64,000 bases of DNA from Dictyostelium discoideum (lineage: Eukaryota): contig CM000154.2 of NCBI GenBank assembly GCA_000004695.1, positions 2,528,001 to 2,592,000 of the forward strand, in the 5' to 3' direction. A program made the translations under genes and the position numbers. Numbering within the stretch: position 1 is the stretch's first letter; every line of letters begins with the position of its first letter. Positions 44,028 to 56,575 of this stretch are shown one piece after another. The notes under the pieces are model-generated. The model worked only from the letters and a program-made list of their open reading frames with translations. It was not told the DNA's origin and did not search any database.

Positions 44028-47000
44028 TTATTTTCTTGAATCGTTATCATTTGTTATTACCAGTTTTAAAATAGATTTGAATTTTTTTATATCATTACTA
44101 GAGTAGATAGTATCTTGATTACCAATTGATGAAGGAGGTAATTGAAGTATACCAGTTAATAATCTTTTACAATGATGGCAATATTCTTTTTTCGAAAGTT
44201 GTAGTTGTTGTTGTTGATGAGGATTAAGATGAAGATTTGGATTATCACTTGAATTCTTTTTAAAGATTAAACAAGAACAAGTGAGTTTTTCATCAATGAT
44301 CATGGTTATAGTTGAATTATCAGATTTTACAAATAATTTAATACCATCATTTTTATAATTTTGAACTGCGATTAGAGTGTTTTCATTCTTGCTATAATTA
44401 TCGACCCTTGTTAAAGATTTACCATTAACTGTAGAGATTGGATAAGGAGATGAAGGATCTTGTAATTCATATTGATCTTCACCCTCTGTTATATATTCGT
44501 CACTAAAACTTGGACTATAGAAATCTTTTTCCATGATATCTAAAAATGTTTTTAATTTCGATTCGAAAAAGTCTTTTTCTAAATGACCATTTGTTAAGGG
44601 ACAAACTTTTTTTAAACTTTGACAAAATTCATTTCTAATCGTTAAGAAACCATTAACAACCACCAATGGTAATATTAAAGTTGAAAAATCTGGGAAATCG
44701 TGCTTTAATTTTTCAACTAAATCTCTATATCTATCGATTGAATCATTTTCAACTTTTTTAACTTCATTTTCACTGTATACACCATCTCTTGATGGATCAA
44801 TAACTGAAATATCAATAATTGCAATCATTTTACCATTTTCTTTTTCAAATAAATTTGGTGTTAATTGTGGTATATTATTATTATTATGATATTGTTGAGG
44901 TATATGTTGTTGTTGTTGTTGTTGATGCTGTTGCTGTTGTTGTTGTGGTGGTACTAAAAATAATAAGAAATCAGGTGTTACTCTCCATTCTAAAGTTGGT
45001 GTATAAAATAATTTTTCATATTTTTCAGTGATTGGATTTATAAGTTTATATTCAATAGGTTCATATTTTGATTTAACCTCTTGAGTGAAATCATGTGGGA
45101 ATTGAGTTGCATTTGTAATTTCAATTGAATGTAATAATTTGAATCTTGGTGAACTATATTCTAAATGAAATTTCTCTTTAAATTTAGAATCCAACCAAAT
45201 TAATATCTCCCTTGCAATGAATTTACTAATTTGATTATGAATTGATAATCTTGATGTGAATTTATAGATATCTTTCATACTGACAGTTCTAGCGATTTCT
45301 TTAGTATGAAGTGTGGTCTCCTCTTTAGTATGAAGGAAAACCAATTCTACAATTTCCAAATCCATAGTTTGAATAGCTTTTGCTAGACTATTGGTTGGCA
45401 TTGGTTCGAATCTATTTTTACATAACCATTGAATAGCTTTTAAACTCCTACTTTCAATTGCATTAATTAGGGAGAAACTTGCAACACCATAGAAATTTTG
45501 ATGAATCATTTCCATGATCTCAATGTTTGCATGTTTTGCTGCCCAATCCATTGATTCGGTGAATACTCTATGTTTAACTTTGAAATAGGGAGGATTTCTC
45601 TTTGTGATTAATCCTTCCAATAAATGTTTGAAAGTTCTACTTTGATTACCTTTTGCAGCATATTCAAAACATTTAATTGTAACATCAAATAGTTTAAGTT
45701 GATCATCATCCGCTAATATCTCTTGAATCTTTAAATTTAAATTTGGTGATGATGATTGACACATTGCATCGAAAACCGATGAAAGGTTAACACCTCTAAC
45801 ACGTAGATGCTCCAATACCATTAAATTACCTTTACTTGCAATTTCACATAATAACTCTTTAGTTAATTCATATGGTTGTTTAACTCTATCCTCTAAAAAG
45901 AAAACACAATCCATATGACCATTTAATAATGCACCATTCATTGCTTTTGTCGTACAAATTTGATAATCTTTAAATTTTTTATCTGTTAAATCTAATAAAT
46001 GTAATTTTTTTTGATTATTATTATTATTATTATTATTATTATTTGATGTTGTTGTTGTTGTAGTTGTTGTAGTAGTTGTTGTAGTTGTAGTTGTAGTTTG
46101 ATTTGTTGATTTTTTCTTTTTCTTTGATTTTGATTTTGATTTTAAAGTTGGAATGTCCTCAATTGAGAATCTTTTTGGTTGTATATTATCATTGTAGTGA
46201 ATGATTTTAACTAAGAAAAAGAAAAGAAAAGATAAGATTTTAATAAAACCAAATGTTGAAGCTAAATCTAAAGCTTGTGGAGATATTGGTTTATTTTTAT
46301 GTGCTAAATAAACTACAACATCGTAATGACCATTCTTTGAGGCATTGATTATTGCATTTTCAGTGCAACCCTCATTTCTGTTGTTCATTAAGAATTTGAC
46401 GATATTGAGATGACCTTTTTCGGCTGCTTTATCCATCGCATTCGTTGTTACTAACCAATTACCCCAACTTAATGAATTCTCCCATGAATGTAGAGTTTTT
46501 AAAATTTTATAATAACCACCTTCACAAATTGCATCGATTATATCAATTGTGTTAAGGAAAACATTTTGACATGAATCCAATAGGAAATCCAATAATTTTT
46601 CATTACCTGCTGATCTTGCTATTGTACATAGTACATATCCATTCACTGTGTTTAAAATTTGTGAAAATTGAATTAAATCGAATTTCAACGAGAATTCAAA
46701 TTTGTCTAAAAGTAATGAAAAATATCGATTTCTAACCATCCAAACGCTGTTGGTAATATCGTCATAATAAAGTGTACGAAACATTCTTTTATCTCTTATA
46801 AAACCAATTATATGTTCTCTTAAAACTTTACTATTCCAAACTTTACGAAATAAAAAATCGCAATCCCTATTTTCTTTTACCTTTAAAACCATATTGTTTT
46901 TTATTCCATCTTTATTTTCACTTTTTATTGACCCTTTATTTTCATTTTCATTTTTAATTTCTTTAATTTTTTCTTTTTTTTTTTCTTTTCTATTTTTTTT

Positions 47001-47321
47001 TTTTTTTTTTTTTTTAAAAAAATTTAATGTTATTTACATTAATTATTAAATTAATAAAATTTCTTTCTTTTTTTCTGTTTTTTTTTTGTTTTTAAAAAAG
47101 TGAAGAAAGAAAGAAATAAAGAAGAAAAAAACAAAAAAAAAAAAGAAAATAAAAATAAAAAATTTAACTTACTCTTCTTGTTCTATATCTAATTCTTCAT
47201 TATGGTTAAGATCTTTTAAAACGTATAAAGAGCATGTATAATTACTTTGTTTAATTTTATATTCTTCAACACTATAGCTATCAAAAAAGATGACTATAGT
47301 TTTTGAAAATTGTGTTTCCAT
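44028..47321 (-). CDS. Ankyrin-repeat protein of unknown function (about 1036 aa)
   Basis: complement(join(44028..46989, 47173..47321)). The 5' exon (METQFSKTIVIFFDSYSVEEYKIK…) ends at GTAAGT. The acceptor aaaaaaaatag at 46990/1 restores the frame (phase 2). Ankyrin-like repeats are present (AAEKGHLNIVKFLM…ASKNGHYDVVVYLA…). The central and C-terminal regions have no recognised domain. Confidence 0.7.
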
Positions 47322-47984
47322 TTTTTAATGGTTAATAAAAAAAAAAAAAATTTCATAAAAAAAAAAAATTTTGAAATTTTGAGCTTTTAAAAAAAATAAA
47401 TGAAATAAAATCAAAAAAGGTTTAATAAAATAAAAAAAACGTATTAAAATAAAAAAATTTTATTTTATTTTATTTTATTTTTATTTTTTTTTTTTTTTTT
47501 AATAATAAGAAATAATTTTTCAAATGATAAAACTAATAAGTTTTTAAAAAAAAAAAAAATCAAATTTTTTTTTAATTTTTTTTTTTTTTTAATTTAATTT
47601 CAGTTTTCACTATTATCCAAAATTTAATATATTAAAATCCGTTTGGCGTTTCATGAAACACATTGTTGTGTTTTTTTAGGAAATTTTTTTTAAAAAAATA
47701 AAAATTTTATGTGAAAATTTGTGGGAAAATGATTTAAAATTCAATATCATGCACCAATAAATAATTATCATTTGGAATCAAAGGAGGTTATCTTAATCTA
47801 CTTAATGGACCATCTGGTTGTTGGCATGAATTTGAGTTAATATTAAATGAAATATTCGTTATATTAAATATTTTTTAATTTTACTGTAAATGTTAAAAAA
47901 AATAAAAAAATTTTTTTTTTTTGACTTGTAAAATATAATTTAAATAATTTTTTTAATTATCATTATCATAAAAATAAAACAAAT

Positions 47985-48150
47985 TCACATTTTTTTTTAG
48001 ATATTTATCATTGAATTACCAATAGCATTATAATAACATATGTTTTTAATATGGATATCGAAATTAAAATTATTTATTTATTTTGAAAAAAAAAAAATAA
48101 AAAAAAAACAGAATAATTAAAAAAAAAAATAATTAAAAAAAAATTTTATG
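47985..48150 (+). repeat. Dispersed intergenic repeat, copy A
   Basis: …ttcacatttttttttagatatttatCATTGAATTACCAATAGCATTataataacatatGTTTTTAATATGGATAtcgaaattaaaaTTATTTATTT…AAACAGAATAA… shares about 85% identity over about 150 bp with copy B at 54063..54235, in the same orientation. Confidence 0.7.
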
Positions 48151-48361
48151 GCATTGTAAAAACCATTGGACATACCAAAGAGCTAAAAAAAGGAAAAAAA
48201 AAAATAAAATAAAAGTTTAATCCTCAACTTGGACTAAATCAAATTTGTCAAATCGATTTTGGAAAGACCCCCTGTCTGAAATAATTAATATTTTAAAAAA
48301 AAAAAATTTCTTTATTATTTATAAAAAAAAGAATTCTTTTTAAATATTGTTTTGATCAAAT

Positions 48362-49437
48362 TTAAACTTCAGAAGAATTTGAAACACTTATATTATTGGA
48401 ATCAGATATTTGAACATCGATTGTATTTGAATAATGAGTTGAAATATGAGTAACAGATAAAGCCAATTCATTGGCACCATTTGAACTACCACTAGAACCT
48501 TTACTACTATCTGAGCCTACCATTGACTCTGGATAACCTAATAATAATCTAATCTTTCTACAGGTTTCAGATCTACCAAAAATAATTAATGCAGCATAAC
48601 AATTGATTAATTCAAGAGCAAAGAAACCAATATTAATCCAATCTTCAGCATCTGAATCTCTTCCAATGGTAACATAAACAATATTGATAACCCAAAGTAC
48701 AATACCAAGAAAAGATGTAACACCAATGAGACCTTTAACTTTTGAAACAAGCATTTCATCATGTTGAGTCCTATTCTTATTGTGGTAAACTTGTTTTAAA
48801 ATTTTAAAACCAAAGAAACCAAGTGATCCAGTAATTAATGCGGCTGAACAAATGAAATATAATCTCCAAGTTGTATCGATAACTTTACTATAACTACCAT
48901 CAACCAATACTATAACTCCGATTGTAGTATAAAACACCAATGACATAATAACATTACCAATTATAATTCTATCAACAGTTGCAACTCTCTCAAAATGTAC
49001 ACGTTTATCCATATATACAACTGCTAATTTCATTAAAAGTAATACAATAAAAAAGAATTCCATTGCAAAAAATTGTACACTCCATCCATAAATAATACAT
49101 ACAATTTTATTAAGATGTGGTGCTTTAGTATTAAATATCCATGCTAATATACCTGTTGCAATTCTAACTAAAAATAATATTAAAGTTAATTTAATAATAA
49201 AATAAAAAAAAATAAAAAAAAAAATCAATTGTATTACTTACATAAAATTGCTATCATCATACTAAAAAATACCAGAAATGGAATTGATTTTAAGTACATC
49301 CTTTTTAATTTTTGATTCAATTTTTTAGATTTTTGAACTTCAATATAAATATGATATAAAACTATAAATAAAAGTGGGACATACCACATACCTTCTAAAA
49401 AATATATCCACGCCCCTCTTATTTTTTCTTGTACCAT
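48362..49437 (-). CDS. Seven-transmembrane-helix membrane protein (about 333 aa), family unassigned
   Basis: complement(join(48362..49167, 49242..49437)); the GTAAGT...TAG intron has consistent phase 1. About 7 hydrophobic helices are followed by a Ser/Gly-rich C-terminal tail. Confidence 0.65.
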
Positions 49438-49493
49438 TTTATTATTATTTTTATTATATTTTTATTAATATTTTTTTTTAATTATTAATGTTA

Positions 49494-49526
<33 letters not shown>

Positions 49527-50277
49527 TTTTATTTTATTTATTTTTTTTAATAATTATTTTTATTCTATTTGTTATTTTTTTTTTATTTTTTATTTTTTCT
49601 ATTATGATTAATTAAATTTATTTAAAAATAAAAAAAAAAAAATCAACTGACCATGTTTTTTTTTTTTTTTTTAACAGTTTTTAGGATAATATTTTATTTT
49701 AATTATTTTTATTTTTTATTTTATTTTTTTTACAACCTTTATTTTTATAAGGTGGAAACTAAGATATTTTTTTTTGGTTGGAGTAAAAAACCATTGCAGA
49801 AAAATATCTTTAAACTAAAAATAAAAAAATATGAAAAACATGAAAAATAGGACACGGATGCTTTTTTATTTTTTTTTTAATTTTTTTTTTTTAAGATATT
49901 TCCCGCATTATTTGAAATTCTTTTTTTTTTTTTTTTCATAATCAAAAAAGAAAAAAAAAAAAAAAAAAAAAGATATTTTAAAAAAAAAAAAAAAAAAAAC
50001 AAAGGAACTAATCAAAAACAAACATTAAAAAAAACAAATTTATAATTTTCACCATTGTTAATGGCAGGGGGGGCCTTTTTTTTTTTTTTTTTTTTTTTTT
50101 GGAAAAAAAATTGGCGGAAAAAAAAATTTTTTTTTTTTTTTTTTTAACCCTAAAAAAAATAAATTTTTTTTTTTTTTTTGCGCGAAAAAAAATTTTTTTA
50201 AAAACAAAAACCCCTTTAAATCCCAAGCCTTTTCTTTGGCAAAAGGTTTTTTTTTTTAAATTTTTTTAAATTTTTTT

Positions 50278-50377
50278 NNNNNNNNNNNNNNNNNNNNNNN
50301 NNNNNNNNNNNNNNNNNNNNNNNNNNNNNNNNNNNNNNNNNNNNNNNNNNNNNNNNNNNNNNNNNNNNNNNNNNNNN
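50278..50377. other. Assembly gap (100 N)
   Basis: 100 N. The 5' flank 50040..50277 is low-quality-like sequence (G/C homopolymers, ggcggaaaaaaaa, gcgcgaaaaaaaa). Confidence 0.95.
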
Positions 50378-50512
50378 CAAAGAAATAAACGAGAATTTAT
50401 ACATATAATAAATAAATCACTGTTATATCTTCACCGCCACATTCATTCCTCTTAATTTTACCCTTTTTTTGCTCAATAAAGCAAGGGCTATCGTCCTATA
50501 TACTTTTCAACA

Positions 50513-51446
50513 ATGGCTGATGATCACTCAACTGAATTACAGTTAAATCATACAGATAACAACACAACCAATACAAATAATACCTCCACAACCTCAACAA
50601 CAAAAAACAAAAGTGCAAAAATCGACACACCTAAAAAACAAACCCCAACAAACCAACTCTCACTAAACAAAGGACTTGATAATCAATTAGATATCATTGC
50701 ACCTCCATCAATCACAAGACCACTCTCTTTCTTAGAAAAAAACAATAACACCATCAACATTAAGTGTTACTTTAACCAACCACACATCCGTGAAGAATTA
50801 ACCTCAAAAGATGACACAAGAATTCAACAAATTCACAAAAACATTCACAAACTCTTCGAAGATATACTGTCGCAATCAGCATTCAAAATAATTGGTGCAA
50901 CTGCCTTCGTAAATTGCAACGTCGATAAATTAACTTCAATAATCAACCTTCAAAACCAACTTGCACTAAATATCGACAAACTCAACTATAGATTCGATAT
51001 ATCATCAAATGATTATGCAATCATTAAAACATTCATTAAAACGTACTCACCCAAACATGCAAACGATGCAATTACAAACAACCTCACTAAATTCACCAGT
51101 TGTACATCAATTGAATCATTTACTGTCACATACTCATATGCTGTTGCGTTTAAAAGCTACATTATAACATATCATCTAATTGATCACACACACAACATTG
51201 TTGATCAAAAGATCGAACAACCATCTGGTATCACAAGATATATCAAAGCTGCAACACGTAGTGTCACTAAACACAAAATTCAACATGCAAAAAATGCAGA
51301 TATGGCAACAACTATAAAAAATGCCATCACGAACCCAAACATGAACAAAAACAATCAACCACCAAAAAACAACATTAACACCCCACCAATCAACGAAATT
51401 GCAAATTCCAATCGCAATAATAACTCACTTCAAAATAGTGGTTCAA
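50513..51446 (+). CDS. ORF with atypical C-ending codon usage, truncated by a gap; candidate transposable-element ORF or highly codon-biased gene
   Basis: ATG at 50513. The frame stays open for 311 codons until the N-run at 51447. Codon choice (ACC, ATC, AAC, CAC, CTC, TTC, GAC) and local GC content differ sharply from every other gene in the window. The protein (…KCYFNQPHIREELTSKDDTRIQQIHKNIHKLFEDILSQ…) has no motif I recognise. Confidence 0.5.
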
Positions 51447-51546
51447 NNNNNNNNNNNNNNNNNNNNNNNNNNNNNNNNNNNNNNNNNNNNNNNNNNNNNN
51501 NNNNNNNNNNNNNNNNNNNNNNNNNNNNNNNNNNNNNNNNNNNNNN
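51447..51546. other. Assembly gap (100 N)
   Basis: 100 N separating the plus-strand atypical ORF from the 3' end of a minus-strand secreted-protein gene. Confidence 0.95.
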
Positions 51547-53619
51547 TCTATTTTACCACCACCATTAATCTCTACATTCAAATCGATTTTGTCTGATGGT
51601 GGTGGAAAACTCATTGATGATCCAGTTAGTTGATAATGTTGTTGAATTTTACTTATTCTTTCCATATCATCACTATTTTCTTTAATTACCAACCTTGAAA
51701 TAAAATCATTAATACCTTCTTTAACTTTTGAGTTATAAAATGTCCTTTCTCCACTTGAACTTATATAGTAATACGAATAAACTTTTTTTGAAAAAAATTT
51801 ACTAAGAGTTGGGCTTTTGAAACAATGTACTGATCCTCCTCTATGAGCCTATTTTTGAGTGTTATGAAAAATCAATTTTATTAAAACTAGATTTTAGAAA
51901 TCCATAATTTAAATATAAATTTTTACTTACCTGTTTTTCCATAAAATTATTATCACCAACACAAAACCATTTATAATCATATTGATTAGGTTGGGTTGGT
52001 ACAACTTCATCAGGAAAATCTCGTTTAAATTGAATAACTGAAAAAGCTTGTTTTGAATGATCCTTTTTTCTTGTAATAATTTTATTATTAGGAGCATAAC
52101 CAGTTATATCTTCAACTTGATATACATTACGTTCAAGATTTGAAACTTTTCCTGTTTCAATGTCATTATAATGTTGAGTTTGTAAATAAAAGTTTCCTAA
52201 TAGTGAAATTTGTTGACCACCAAAATCCATCTTTAAGGTTGAAATGTATGTCCAAATGTTTATTAAATTTTTATAACTCAATTTACTGGGATCCATATAT
52301 CTTCTTACACCATAAATATAGTTTTTCCCTAATTGGTTATCTTTGTTATAAAATTGTTTTTGATAAAAATATAATTTTTCTGAATATTGGTTATAAAGTG
52401 TTTCTAAATGTTGCTTTTTACTGTATTCCGAAAAATAATATGCCTGGTTTAAAAAGTTAATTTTTTTTTTTTTTTAATAAATAAGGTAATTTAAAGATTT
52501 TGATTAGATTAATGAAAATACACATACATGCTTTGCCAAAACATACAATGGGAATTTATCATTTTGGTCCAATATTTTAACATCATTAACAATTCCGGCT
52601 GTTACTTGAGATTCTCGAATATTAATATTTTCGTAATGAATATTTCTCTTTTGAAAATCATTTGTATCAGGTATTCTCATAAAGCTAACTCTTGGAAATT
52701 TGGCAGGATCTAAATCATCTAATATATTTGTTAACTCTAATGATGAGAGTCCCCAATTGACTGCCAAACCATTAACGTAACCAATAACTGAATTTGTTAA
52801 TACCAAATGTCTATAGATACCAACTTCAATCCCTGTTTTTGAAATCGGATAGCAATATGCATACTGTGCTTGTTGTAATTTTGGGTTCTTATCTTTTGGT
52901 ATTAAATTCAAAAATTAATATTAATAATAAAGGAATGAAATTGGTTAAATGTATGAAATAATGAACCATTACCTCTTAAATTTTTATCTTTATGATTAAA
53001 AACTTCTAAACCAGGATTAAATCCACCTGTTTGTGGCTTTTTTGCAAATTTTCCTTTCTCCATAGTTTCATCATTTCTACTTGTTCTAAACAAAGGAAAT
53101 GCTGTAAAACTATGCATCACATGTATACCACCATCTTTGTTCCTACAAGTTCACAATGTGTTTAAAATAATAAATCAATTTTTAAATTAAGAAATTAATT
53201 TTCCTTTTTTTTTTTTTTTTTTTAAAAAATTTAAATAAAATTAAAAATTAAAATATTTACCAAATAAAAAATCCTTTTGAATGTCCACCTACTGGATCTT
53301 TATCTCTTGTTTCATCAGGATGATCATTGTAGGTAACATAATTATAATCTGGGTTTTCCATTTGGTTGAATGTTAATAAAAACGCTGATTCACTATCATA
53401 TCTTAATGAATATTCAATTCCTATTTTTTCAGTTATGGTATCAGAGAAACTATTCCAATAATAAATTCCACCTTCTTCAGGTAACTGGTAAATGTACCAT
53501 TTTCTTATTATATTGTTCAATCCAATATCTTTTCCTCCTTGTAAACACATGGGCTGACAATAAAATAATTGAATATTAAATATAATTAAAATTAAAAAAA
53601 TTAAAATAATCTTTTTCAT
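51547..53619 (-). CDS. Secreted multi-exon protein (signal peptide), family unassigned; 3' end lost in the gap
   Basis: ATG at 53619 with a signal peptide MKKIILIFLILIIFNIQLFYCQ. At least 5 exons are joined by GTAAAT/GTAATG/GTATGT...AG introns. The partial model already exceeds 550 aa. Exon blocks sit at ~53259..53619, ~52936..53137, ~52515..52903, ~51860..52440 and ~51547..51845. I found no catalytic motif I could assign with confidence. Confidence 0.5.
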
Positions 53620-54062
53620 TTTATTTGTTGTAATTATTTTTTTTATTCTTTTTAAATAAATTAAATTATTTTAAAAATTAAAATATTTATTTTATTCAAT
53701 TTTATTTTTCTATTACAAGATTCTGATAAAACATGAGCAATAATTTAGGCGAGTATTTTTAACTTTTTTTTATTAAACTAATAAATCATTTATATAAATT
53801 ATTGTGTTAATGTTCAACATATGGTGCACCATTATTGTTTTTCTTTTTGAATAATGTTTCAAAACTAGACATTATTGTCGTTTTTTTTTATTCGAATCCA
53901 ATAGATGATATCATTATTATTAATATTTAATATTTGAAAATAGAAAAAAAAATGTTAGAAGAAAAAAATAATTTATTTAAATAATAAATAAAATTAAATG
54001 ACTTATTCCTTTTTTTTTATCATTTTCATAAAGTAAAAAAAGGAAAAAAAATATACACATAT

Positions 54063-54235
54063 TTCACATTTTTTTTAAATGTGTAGCATTGAATTACCAA
54101 TAGCATTTATATTTACATTTGTTTTTAATATGGATATTGAAATAAAAATTATTTATTTGAATTAGAAAAAAAAAAAAAAAAAAAAAAACAGAATAAAAAA
54201 AAAAATAAAAAATAAAAAAAAATTATATTTTTTAT
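54063..54235 (+). repeat. Dispersed intergenic repeat, copy B
   Basis: See copy A. The identical cores cattgaattaccaatagcatt and gtttttaatatggata are followed by A-rich sequence containing aacagaataa. Both copies lie 200-270 bp 3' of a minus-strand gene stop (48362 and 54433). Confidence 0.7.
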
Positions 54236-54432
54236 TAATAATTGGTAAAGATCCAAATCTATATCTCCAAATAATTAATATCCAAAAAAAAACTATTGAT
54301 TATGATCTAGATCTGGTAAATAATTAATTAATATCATAAATAAAAGAAAAAAATAATAATAATATTTAAACTTTGGTTAATGATTTTATGTTTGAAATTC
54401 TTTTAAGAATTATAAAAATATTTATTTTAAAG

Positions 54433-55696
54433 TTAAGAATTTTTATAATCAATTAAAGAATTTTTTGAGAAACCATTATTTGAAACAGTTAATTTTAATA
54501 ATTTAAATTGTTTGATATGTTGATTTTTTGAAATGAAAGAATTGAATTTAAATTTATAATCATCCACACTACCAGATATTTGATCAACCATTGATTCGAA
54601 ATAGATTATATTTTTTAAGTTTTCCATTATATTAAAGAGAATGATAGAGTTATCGCCACCATGTATCGAAAACTTTTTTAAAGGTGATATCCAAGACAAG
54701 AAGCAAGTGAAATTATTTATAAATGATTTTTTGAATTTTTCTGAACTCCAAAGTAATGAAGCACCATAGGTAGTACAAGAATTACCAATAAACAAAGATT
54801 CCAATGTTAAATTTTTATTTTTGTTTGTTACCATCTCCTTTAATTCTAACCAATCATTATTGAATGAATCTTGGTCTTTGAAAGTGTCATTAATTGAAGA
54901 ATAGCTTGTCAAACAATTACATATACAATCTGAACGTTTATCTTGTGTATCAGATAAACAATACACTAATTTTCTTAAACAAATACCAACAAAAAGATGA
55001 TGTAAATCTTTAAAGACCAATGGAGATAATAAAAATGTTAAATCTTTTAAAGAGATTGCTGAATCATAAATTTCTAAATATTTGACATTTGAAATCATAG
55101 AAGCATTTTTTGAAAAAATTTCAGTTATTCTTAATGTTTGTGAAACAAATAATTGATTTAATGAATGATTCCAATATCTAAATGCTTCATTTATAACTGG
55201 TTCCTGTAATTCTGTACAAAAATGAATATAGAGTGAAAATAATTTGGTCACTCTTTTCTTTAACTTTTCTAAATCCTTCAAATTACTTGATTGATTAATT
55301 TCCAATTCCAATAATTGTATATTACTTTTAACGATTTCGTTCTCTTTAAATTTAAATATAATTAATTTATCAATATTATCATTAAAATTAACAATATTAA
55401 TATTTCTAATTAAAACTCTTTTAAATGGTATATTAATAATTAATTGATTTTCATTTTGTTGTTTTTTTTTTTGTTGTTGTTGTTGTTGTTGTAATTGTTT
55501 TTGATATTCTATTAAATTTTCAAATCTATTATCGATTTCATTAATTGTAATTTCTTTCTCTCCTTCTGGTGCTCTTATTGAACCACCACCACCTGGTCCA
55601 ATAATTTTATAAAAGTATGGTTTCTTGTAATCATGATGTAATTTAATGGTTTTAATATTCTCTCTTTTAATTATTGAATATTTTTCATTATTAATT

Positions 55697-55772
<76 letters not shown>

Positions 55773-56022
55773 ATGATATACTTGTTGATGATTGATCTTT
55801 ATAATTAAAATCAACTGATACTGTTAAATTATTTGATAATGTTTTAAACCAATCTTTACAAACCAATGCCAATGATAACATTAACTTTTTATTAATAGAT
55901 TCATTCTTTCTATACTCTGAATCAAGATCTGTTATAATTTCCAATGTCTTATTTTGTCTATCAATATGTTTACACAGTAATTTAATTATAAATTTTTGAA
56001 TATATAATGGTATTATGGTCAT
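54433..56022 (-). CDS. Hypothetical 529-aa protein with a poly-Asn and poly-Gln insert
   Basis: Single ATG-initiated ORF with non-repetitive flanks and internal N20 and Q8 runs. No recognisable domain. Confidence 0.55.
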
Positions 56023-56109
56023 TATAAATTAATTATATATGATTTAAAAAAAAAAATAATAATAATAATAAAAAAAAAAAAAAAAGGGGTTTGGGGGGAA
56101 AAAAATAAA

Positions 56110-56152
<43 letters not shown>

Positions 56153-56282
56153 GTATATAGTAATTTTGTTTTTTCACGAATAATTAAAAAATTAAGAAAA
56201 AAAAAAATAAAAAAAAATTAAAAAAATAAAAAAAATAAATAATATAATAAATAAATTAATTTTTATTTTAAATAATTGTTGT

Positions 56283-56323
<41 letters not shown>

Positions 56324-56535
56324 TGGGCAATTACTTTATAATAACCATAACTAACTATCCAATACTTATATGGTATCCATCTAGATGATTCATTACCAAA
56401 TTGATTTTTATTATTTATATTGTTGTAATTGCTTGTTGGTAGAATTTCATTATTATTTGTACCTATTCTATTTTTATTAATTGAGGTTAATGATTCTATT
56501 TTAAAAAAAATAAAAAAATGTTAATTAAATATTTC

Positions 56536-56575
<40 letters not shown>

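Follow-up and report, generated by a model that had tools for sequence, protein, structure and literature searches.

Introduction

Unprocessed pseudogenes that arise together with their 5′ flanks by tandem or segmental duplication typically lie as same-orientation copies within a few kb of one another, carry stops, truncations and lineage-specific deletions, and show a non-coding divergence close to that of introns. Two other classes of Dictyostelium sequence share the appearance of short intergenic segments. The miniature inverted-repeat transposable elements (MITEs), exemplified by the thug elements and compared here by their description, are short, AT-rich and repeated. The non-coding RNA (ncRNA) genes span about 100 nt and include the box C/D small nucleolar RNAs (snoRNAs) DdR5 and DdR16 and the class I RNAs with a Dictyostelium upstream sequence element (DUSE). 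The present analysis concerns two similar segments, copy A and copy B of one element, in a 64,000-nt stretch of the Dictyostelium discoideum nuclear genome (the window: GenBank assembly GCA_000004695.1, contig CM000154.2, positions 2,528,001 to 2,592,000 of the forward strand; strain AX4). The original prediction had taken these segments for a novel dispersed repeat downstream of two unrelated genes, and had proposed a MITE-like relic, a shared 3′-end or antisense promoter element, or a small ncRNA.

With a probability of roughly 88%, the two segments are relics of the 5′ flank of a duplicated, Dictyostelium-specific tandem gene family, and both window copies are most likely inert. Such an outcome is standard for tandem duplication followed by pseudogenisation, and the locus adds a further example to a familiar class. 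It differs from the usual unprocessed pseudogenes in that the coding sequence is almost all gone, which leaves promoter fragments resembling a free-standing repeat, and in that one copy appears to have been disabled by a gene-carrying insertion of ~13.4 kb instead of point mutations. A segmental duplication, which the original prediction had itself named as the scenario that would overturn it, is essentially what emerges, here as a heavily decayed gene duplication. The apparent novel repeat is best understood as debris of gene-family turnover, to be annotated as two pseudogene/promoter relics; neither a mobile element nor an RNA gene should be entered here.

Alignment of the two copies and the attached coding relics

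The best local alignment of copy A with copy B contains 160 identical positions in 185 columns (86.5%) in the same orientation, in good agreement with the ~150-bp segments of ~85% identity and common orientation reported initially. Between the right ends of the copies and the stop codons of the minus-strand open reading frames (ORFs) 48362..49228 and 54433..56022 there are 213 and 205 nt, respectively, as expected from the earlier estimate of ~200-270 bp, and the products of these flanking ORFs are indeed unrelated (BLASTP E = 0.92). The window, which is 78% A+T and includes four 100-N gaps, holds two copies of the element only. The 21-mer CATTGAATTACCAATAGCATT is present at exactly two sites (48009 and 54087), as is the 24-mer TGTTTTTAATATGGATATYGAAAT (48041 and 54120); shuffled sequences yield an expectation of ~0 for either word, even with up to 3 mismatches. 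BLASTN of each copy against the window returned 176-179 bits for the A/B pair, compared with at most ~100 bits at 62-76% identity for the AT-rich background. A window-wide repeat finder was uninformative, its output being dominated by AT-rich low complexity. Word dot-plots of the two neighbourhoods showed no further homology between them on either strand. To the right of 48149/54228 (AAATAATTAATAT) the homology score of 33 falls below the null mean of 35 and is not above background, and on the other side of copy A a weak homology reaches ~47950 (TATGATAATGATAA at 47957-47970).

The original prediction also held that perfectly conserved cores stand out from their surroundings. The longest exact A/B runs measure 19, 18 and 18 nt. 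Simulated random placement of 25 differences in 185 columns gave a mean longest exact run of 25 nt, and the chance of runs at least as long as those observed is P = 0.87 for the longest (19 nt) and P = 0.56 for the second (18 nt). Because the run lengths match random placement of the differences, the "perfect cores" are typical of random scatter and constitute no evidence of constraint.

A tblastn search of the window with the 338-aa protein of an intact family gene (locus L004, 6029-7136; see below) produced only two significant matches, both on the minus strand and each just past the left end of one copy. The match on the copy-B side, 53899-53819, covers residues 6-32 at 85% identity with an in-frame stop, and that on the copy-A side, 47841-47737, covers residues 156-190 at 71% identity, likewise with an in-frame stop. 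Because matches to the family protein adjoin both copies, the two copies, read on the minus strand, form the 5′ flanks of remnants of one gene. At copy B the upstream region is complete (54262 down to 53915) and is followed by the beginning of exon 1, and the homology runs unbroken through the proximal promoter into the exon until it stops at GCACCATAT (53827-53819). This is the insertion breakpoint, and it truncates the gene at ~codon 30. What survives at copy A is the upstream block together with ~110 nt of exon 2; this coding relic is 84% identical in nucleotide sequence to L005 10488-10598. Lost from copy A are exon 1, the intron, the beginning of exon 2 and the proximal promoter, a region that copy B shares with the intact genes. 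The coordinates of these features are collected in Table 1.

Table 1 Features of the locus and of related loci. Positions refer to the window unless another locus is named.
Feature	Position	Strand	Remarks
Copy A of element	47970..48149	-	Upstream block of family gene, ~-130..-240 from ATG in intact paralogues
Pseudogene fragment of copy A	47730..47841	-	Residues 156-190 of 338-aa protein, two in-frame stops
Copy B of element	54047..54228	-	Upstream block; holds TATAAATGCTATTGG (54097-54111) and palindrome CACATTTAAAAAAAATGTG (54065-54083)
Far-upstream block, copy B	54241..54262	-	ATAGATTTGGATCTTTACCAAT; common to three ACTFIW paralogues, absent from copy A
Proximal promoter and 5′ untranslated region, copy B	53915..54046	-	GTCATTTAATTTTATTTATTATTTAAATAAA at 53972-54002, CTTCTAACATTTTTTTTTCTATTTTC at 53936-53961
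Truncated exon 1 of copy-B family gene	53819..53914	-	ATG 53914-53912; translation MISSIGFE*KKTTIMSSFETLFKKKNNNGAPY
DNase II-like gene	51862..53619	-	Putative first gene of inserted segment; ATG 200 nt beyond breakpoint, same strand as relic
Gene A, multi-pass membrane protein	48362..49437	-	T. lacteum homologue named as containing THH1/TOM1/TOM3 domain
Gene B, 529-aa protein	54433..56022	-	No convincing Pfam family
ATGTGAAAT block	within -400..-1 of intact family gene		
Element in L006 (ACTFIW)	3657-3838, 7623-7782, 10212-10367		Before ATGs at 3973, 8001 and 10535
Element in L005 (GCA_054883475.1)	9892-10037		Upstream of family member
Element in L007	7699-7879 and 4526-4657		Upstream of two family genes
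Element in L012 and L013			Directly before family genes

The element in related loci

Related loci, designated by L numbers, were fetched through the proteins that neighbour the copies, and counts of the element cover the window and these loci. Ten copies occur beyond the window, in five loci, which brings the total to 12 with A and B. In all 12, position and orientation are constant with respect to the ATG of a family gene, and each is tied to such a gene or to its remnants; in every close family member the element precedes the start codon by ~130-240 nt. The family products are ~338 aa in length and encoded by two exons, and a Pfam scan of the 338-aa protein matched no family. No homologue was detected other than those in D. 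discoideum and D. cf. discoideum assemblies, a 44%-identical AX4 protein (DDB_G0270600) and a small number of Logan contigs. The Logan contigs L008-L010 derive from a 48%-identical relative and are genomic, as manifested by the presence of the intron, and hence carry no information on transcription start sites. The AX4 paralogue P0027 was not located on any contig, and a literature search returned nothing on DDB_G0270600 or on a STATa/TTGA site. The loci orthologous to gene A in D. citrinum (L002) and D. dimigraforme (L003) contain neither the element nor a family gene and differ in synteny downstream of gene A.

The assembly GCA_054859355.1 (locus tags ACTFIW; L004 and L006) contains an orthologue of gene B with 86-88% identity, followed downstream by an orthologue of copy B that is 90% identical to the window copy and, ~135 nt further on, by the intact two-exon gene of 338 codons used in the search above. 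The tandem array in ACTFIW reads gene B, family 1, a 150-aa gene, family 2, family 3, the gene A orthologue, the copy-A relic and the ankyrin gene. Gene B adjoins the copy-B element on its upstream side in AX4, ACTFIW and ACTFIY, and because the order gene B, element, family gene is present in both ACTFIW (L006) and ACTFIY (L012), this order is ancestral. Although labelled Dictyostelium discoideum by NCBI, GCA_054859355.1 departs from the window at 8-11% of the nucleotides in orthologous DNA and has another gene order, and could belong to a cryptic sister lineage. An additional inverted core of the element is present in L012 at 5379-5496 (minus orientation), ~1.4 kb downstream of the ACTFIY family gene, with 87% identity over 119 nt.

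In gene orientation the cores noted initially read ...ATATCCATATTAAAAAC AAATGTAAATATA AATGCTATTGGTAATTCAATG CTACACATTTAAAAAAAATGTGAAAT..., and a second conserved block, GTCATTTAATTTTATTTATTATTTAAATAAA ... CTTCTAACA-T(n)-CTATTTTCAAATTTAAAATAATAAT-ATG, separates them from the start codon. A TATA-like sequence combined with a T-run, as seen in the second block, is a layout typical of Dictyostelium core promoters. Judged by its position and conservation, the element most likely serves intact family genes as an upstream regulatory portion of their promoters. The initial idea of a promoter element was therefore close in kind, as the element is probably a functional cis element in its intact context, but the reading as a 3′-end element fails. 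That the element belongs to the 3′ end of whichever gene precedes it is contradicted by the relatives, where it keeps a fixed distance 5′ of the family gene whatever lies upstream. The placement ~200 nt downstream of two unrelated genes reflects no more than the short intergenic spacers of head-to-tail genes.

The fixed placement in 12/12 copies also bears on the proposal that a non-autonomous mobile element (a MITE, a solo long terminal repeat (LTR), or a retroposon resembling a short interspersed nuclear element with an A-rich tail) inserted independently at both sites. The small size of the element (~180-230 bp), the A-rich tract at one end of its plus strand and the proximity of a non-LTR retrotransposon fragment (50378-51446) would be in keeping with such an origin. 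However, an independently inserted element would not be expected at a constant distance and in one orientation from a family ATG, nor would its homology continue, as that of copy B does, through the proximal promoter into exon 1. The A-rich tract, with an internal CAGAATAA, is homologous between the copies and corresponds to the T-rich tract that lies upstream of the block in all paralogues. A check for terminal inverted repeats detected only poly-A/poly-T low-complexity pairings, none of them shared as specific termini by both copies, and no direct repeat indicative of a target-site duplication is recognisable at the fuzzy alignment ends of either copy. An exact scan of metagenome contigs gave no match, and a full-text search for the core sequence was likewise empty. 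The element is thus unlike the Dictyostelium MITEs in that it has neither terminal inverted repeats nor target-site duplications, is never found apart from a family gene, and has homology that enters coding sequence. The earlier notion of a MITE relic can be set aside, and a mobile origin of any of these types is considered highly improbable.

Comparison of the copies is equally unfavourable to a small ncRNA or micropeptide gene within the block, for example the plus-strand ORF MDIEIKIIYL(F/N), in which both A/B substitutions are synonymous. This 11-codon ORF is common to copies A and B, the plus strand has a TATA-like sequence and a T-run ahead of the block, and known snoRNA genes are found 3 kb away. 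In the element copies FIW_2, FIW_3 and FIT_2, however, the ATG of the ORF is lost (ATGGAT to ATTGA), and the peptide diverges in FIW_1. Rfam searches of 700-nt regions yielded nothing overlapping either copy at E<=10, and the matches outside the copies were far below the gathering thresholds; at gathering thresholds, a search of the whole window gave nothing at the repeat. The predicted folding of either copy on either strand is no better than that of dinucleotide shuffles (z = -0.37, 0.19, 1.37 and -0.24), and direct reading of both copies revealed no DUSE motif of the CCCA[CT]AA type. Dictyostelium ncRNA genes resemble the element in their intergenic location and length of ~100 nt, and genuine snoRNA genes are present in the same window, but the element differs from them in having no Rfam match, C/D boxes, DUSE, stable fold or covariation. 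An RNA or peptide gene at this site is accordingly regarded as very unlikely, and the original suggestion of a small ncRNA finds no support in either the Rfam or the folding results.

Three specific candidates were discarded. The micro-ORF MDIEIKIIYL was rejected as a gene because its ATG is not conserved in the other element copies; the palindrome CACATTT/AAATGTG was rejected as a selected hairpin because its left arm varies without compensating changes; and a minus-strand terminal exon (NAIGNSM..*) was rejected on direct reading because the cores are offset by a 1-nt indel between them and lack a preceding AG acceptor.

Insertion at copy B and the gaps in the reference

L001, a 7.6-kb locus of the D. 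discoideum assembly GCA_054883475.1, is 99.4% identical to window positions 51547-59055. In that assembly the remainder of the copy-B gene resumes at ACCATATAC... (ACCATAT...), near position 7986 of L005, at a distance of ~13.4 kb and with chromosome and strand unchanged. Between the two parts lie the DNase II gene and genes whose products have TPR, Arf, EGF/TIG and ComC-type domains. Both junctions (window 53819-53827, L001 near 5204, and L005 near 7986) show the 7-bp sequence ACCATAT, which looks like a target-site duplication or microhomology. Because the homology stops at the GCACCATAT breakpoint and resumes ~13.4 kb away, the first family gene appears to be split in exon 1 by a large insertion of that size.

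The AX4 gap at 51447-51546 corresponds to ~18.6 kb in GCA_054883475.1, comprising five other genes, two more family members, one of which has its own copy of the element, and a non-LTR retrotransposon. The unsized gap of the reference thus conceals further family members. The window segment 50378-51446, situated between two gaps, matches at 100% identity a portion of the L005 gene of non-LTR retrotransposon type (RVT_1 and Exo_endo_phos domains, 1596 aa). Taken together, the locus points to a strain-variable tandem gene family and to recent structural rearrangement in Dictyostelium.

The present organization can be envisaged as follows. Tandem duplication would have copied a family gene together with its promoter, both exons and the intron. 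The copy-B gene would have been cut in exon 1, after ~codon 30, by the gene-carrying insertion, and the copy-A gene would have decayed to its upstream block and ~110 nt of exon 2 with stops.

Divergence and constraint

Among five intact paralogues and orthologues, the core block shows 80-99% identity, the intron 75-91% and the exons 85-97%. Copies A and B are 86% identical, and the coding relic of copy A is 84% identical to its paralogue. Because the divergence of the element equals that of the coding relic and of the family introns, the window copies exhibit no excess conservation. The argument that conserved cores imply a functional element instead of a duplication is not borne out by these values, nor by the chance-like run lengths described above. 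Copy B and its ACTFIW orthologue are 90% identical over the element and 92% over the whole region. In the ACTFIW orthologue of copy A core 1 is deleted, and the relic therefore behaves as unconstrained DNA, as neutral decay predicts. We infer that both window copies are now functionless.

Several observations weigh against relics of an inert promoter as a complete account. The promoter role of the block is a putative one, assigned from its position. The comparison of ACTFIW with ACTFIY gives 80-86% identity for the core and 77-81% for the proximal block, well above the 51-56% of the 3′ flank and the 38-43% of the far-upstream block; this could reflect real promoter constraint in the intact genes, or the edges of the duplicated unit. 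The element has no detectable counterpart at L011, a 46%-identical paralogue, and because of this it is not a deep hallmark of the family. The AX4 reference has unsized gaps (N runs 50278-50377 and 51447-51546), so that the insertion was reconstructed from two loci in the assembly of another strain, L001 and L005, which are separated by ~3 kb. Finally, the orphaned copies have the same orientation and lie upstream of the DNase II gene and the ankyrin gene, respectively.

The last point raises the alternative that the orphaned blocks are still active and help to drive or regulate the next gene on the same strand; for copy B this gene would be DNase II (ATG 53619), and for copy A the ankyrin-repeat gene (first exon 47321). 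The -130..-240 block would then be a family-specific cis-regulatory module under selection, the copy-B promoter would have been captured by the DNase II gene after the ~13-kb insertion, and copy A may likewise influence the ankyrin gene. Both relics point toward the downstream gene, the native sequence that the insertion left ahead of the DNase II start codon measures only 200 nt, and copy B has its complete upstream region including the proximal block; the better conservation of the core and proximal blocks across lineages, relative to the other flanks, would also fit. In contrast, copy A is devoid of the proximal promoter block, its ACTFIW orthologue has dispensed with core 1 though the ankyrin gene is still present, and copy B has diverged from its own orthologue at the rate of the surrounding DNA. 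Residual or co-opted activity of the orphaned copies is judged unlikely, as is selection on the module with capture by the neighbouring genes. If such capture were true, the relics would be regulatory sequence still in use, which a recent structural change had connected to new genes. Decayed 5′ flanks of family genes remain the preferred interpretation of both copies.

Neighbouring genes and RNA genes

Gene A shares the strand of copy A, is located upstream of it and bears no relation to the element. On the far side of copy A, a 50-codon ORF on the minus strand (47169-47321, METQFSK...) is the apparent first exon of the ankyrin-repeat gene 44028-46892, on the basis of the start of the L006 gene model (16056). 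A tRNA-Leu(AAG) gene at 22132-22213 (minus strand) is remote from the two copies and unconnected with them. Beyond gene B, the minus strand carries a cluster of box C/D snoRNA genes at 57363-57443, 57694-57770 and 58031-58108, which comprises DdR5 and two DdR16 genes with near-perfect Rfam matches.

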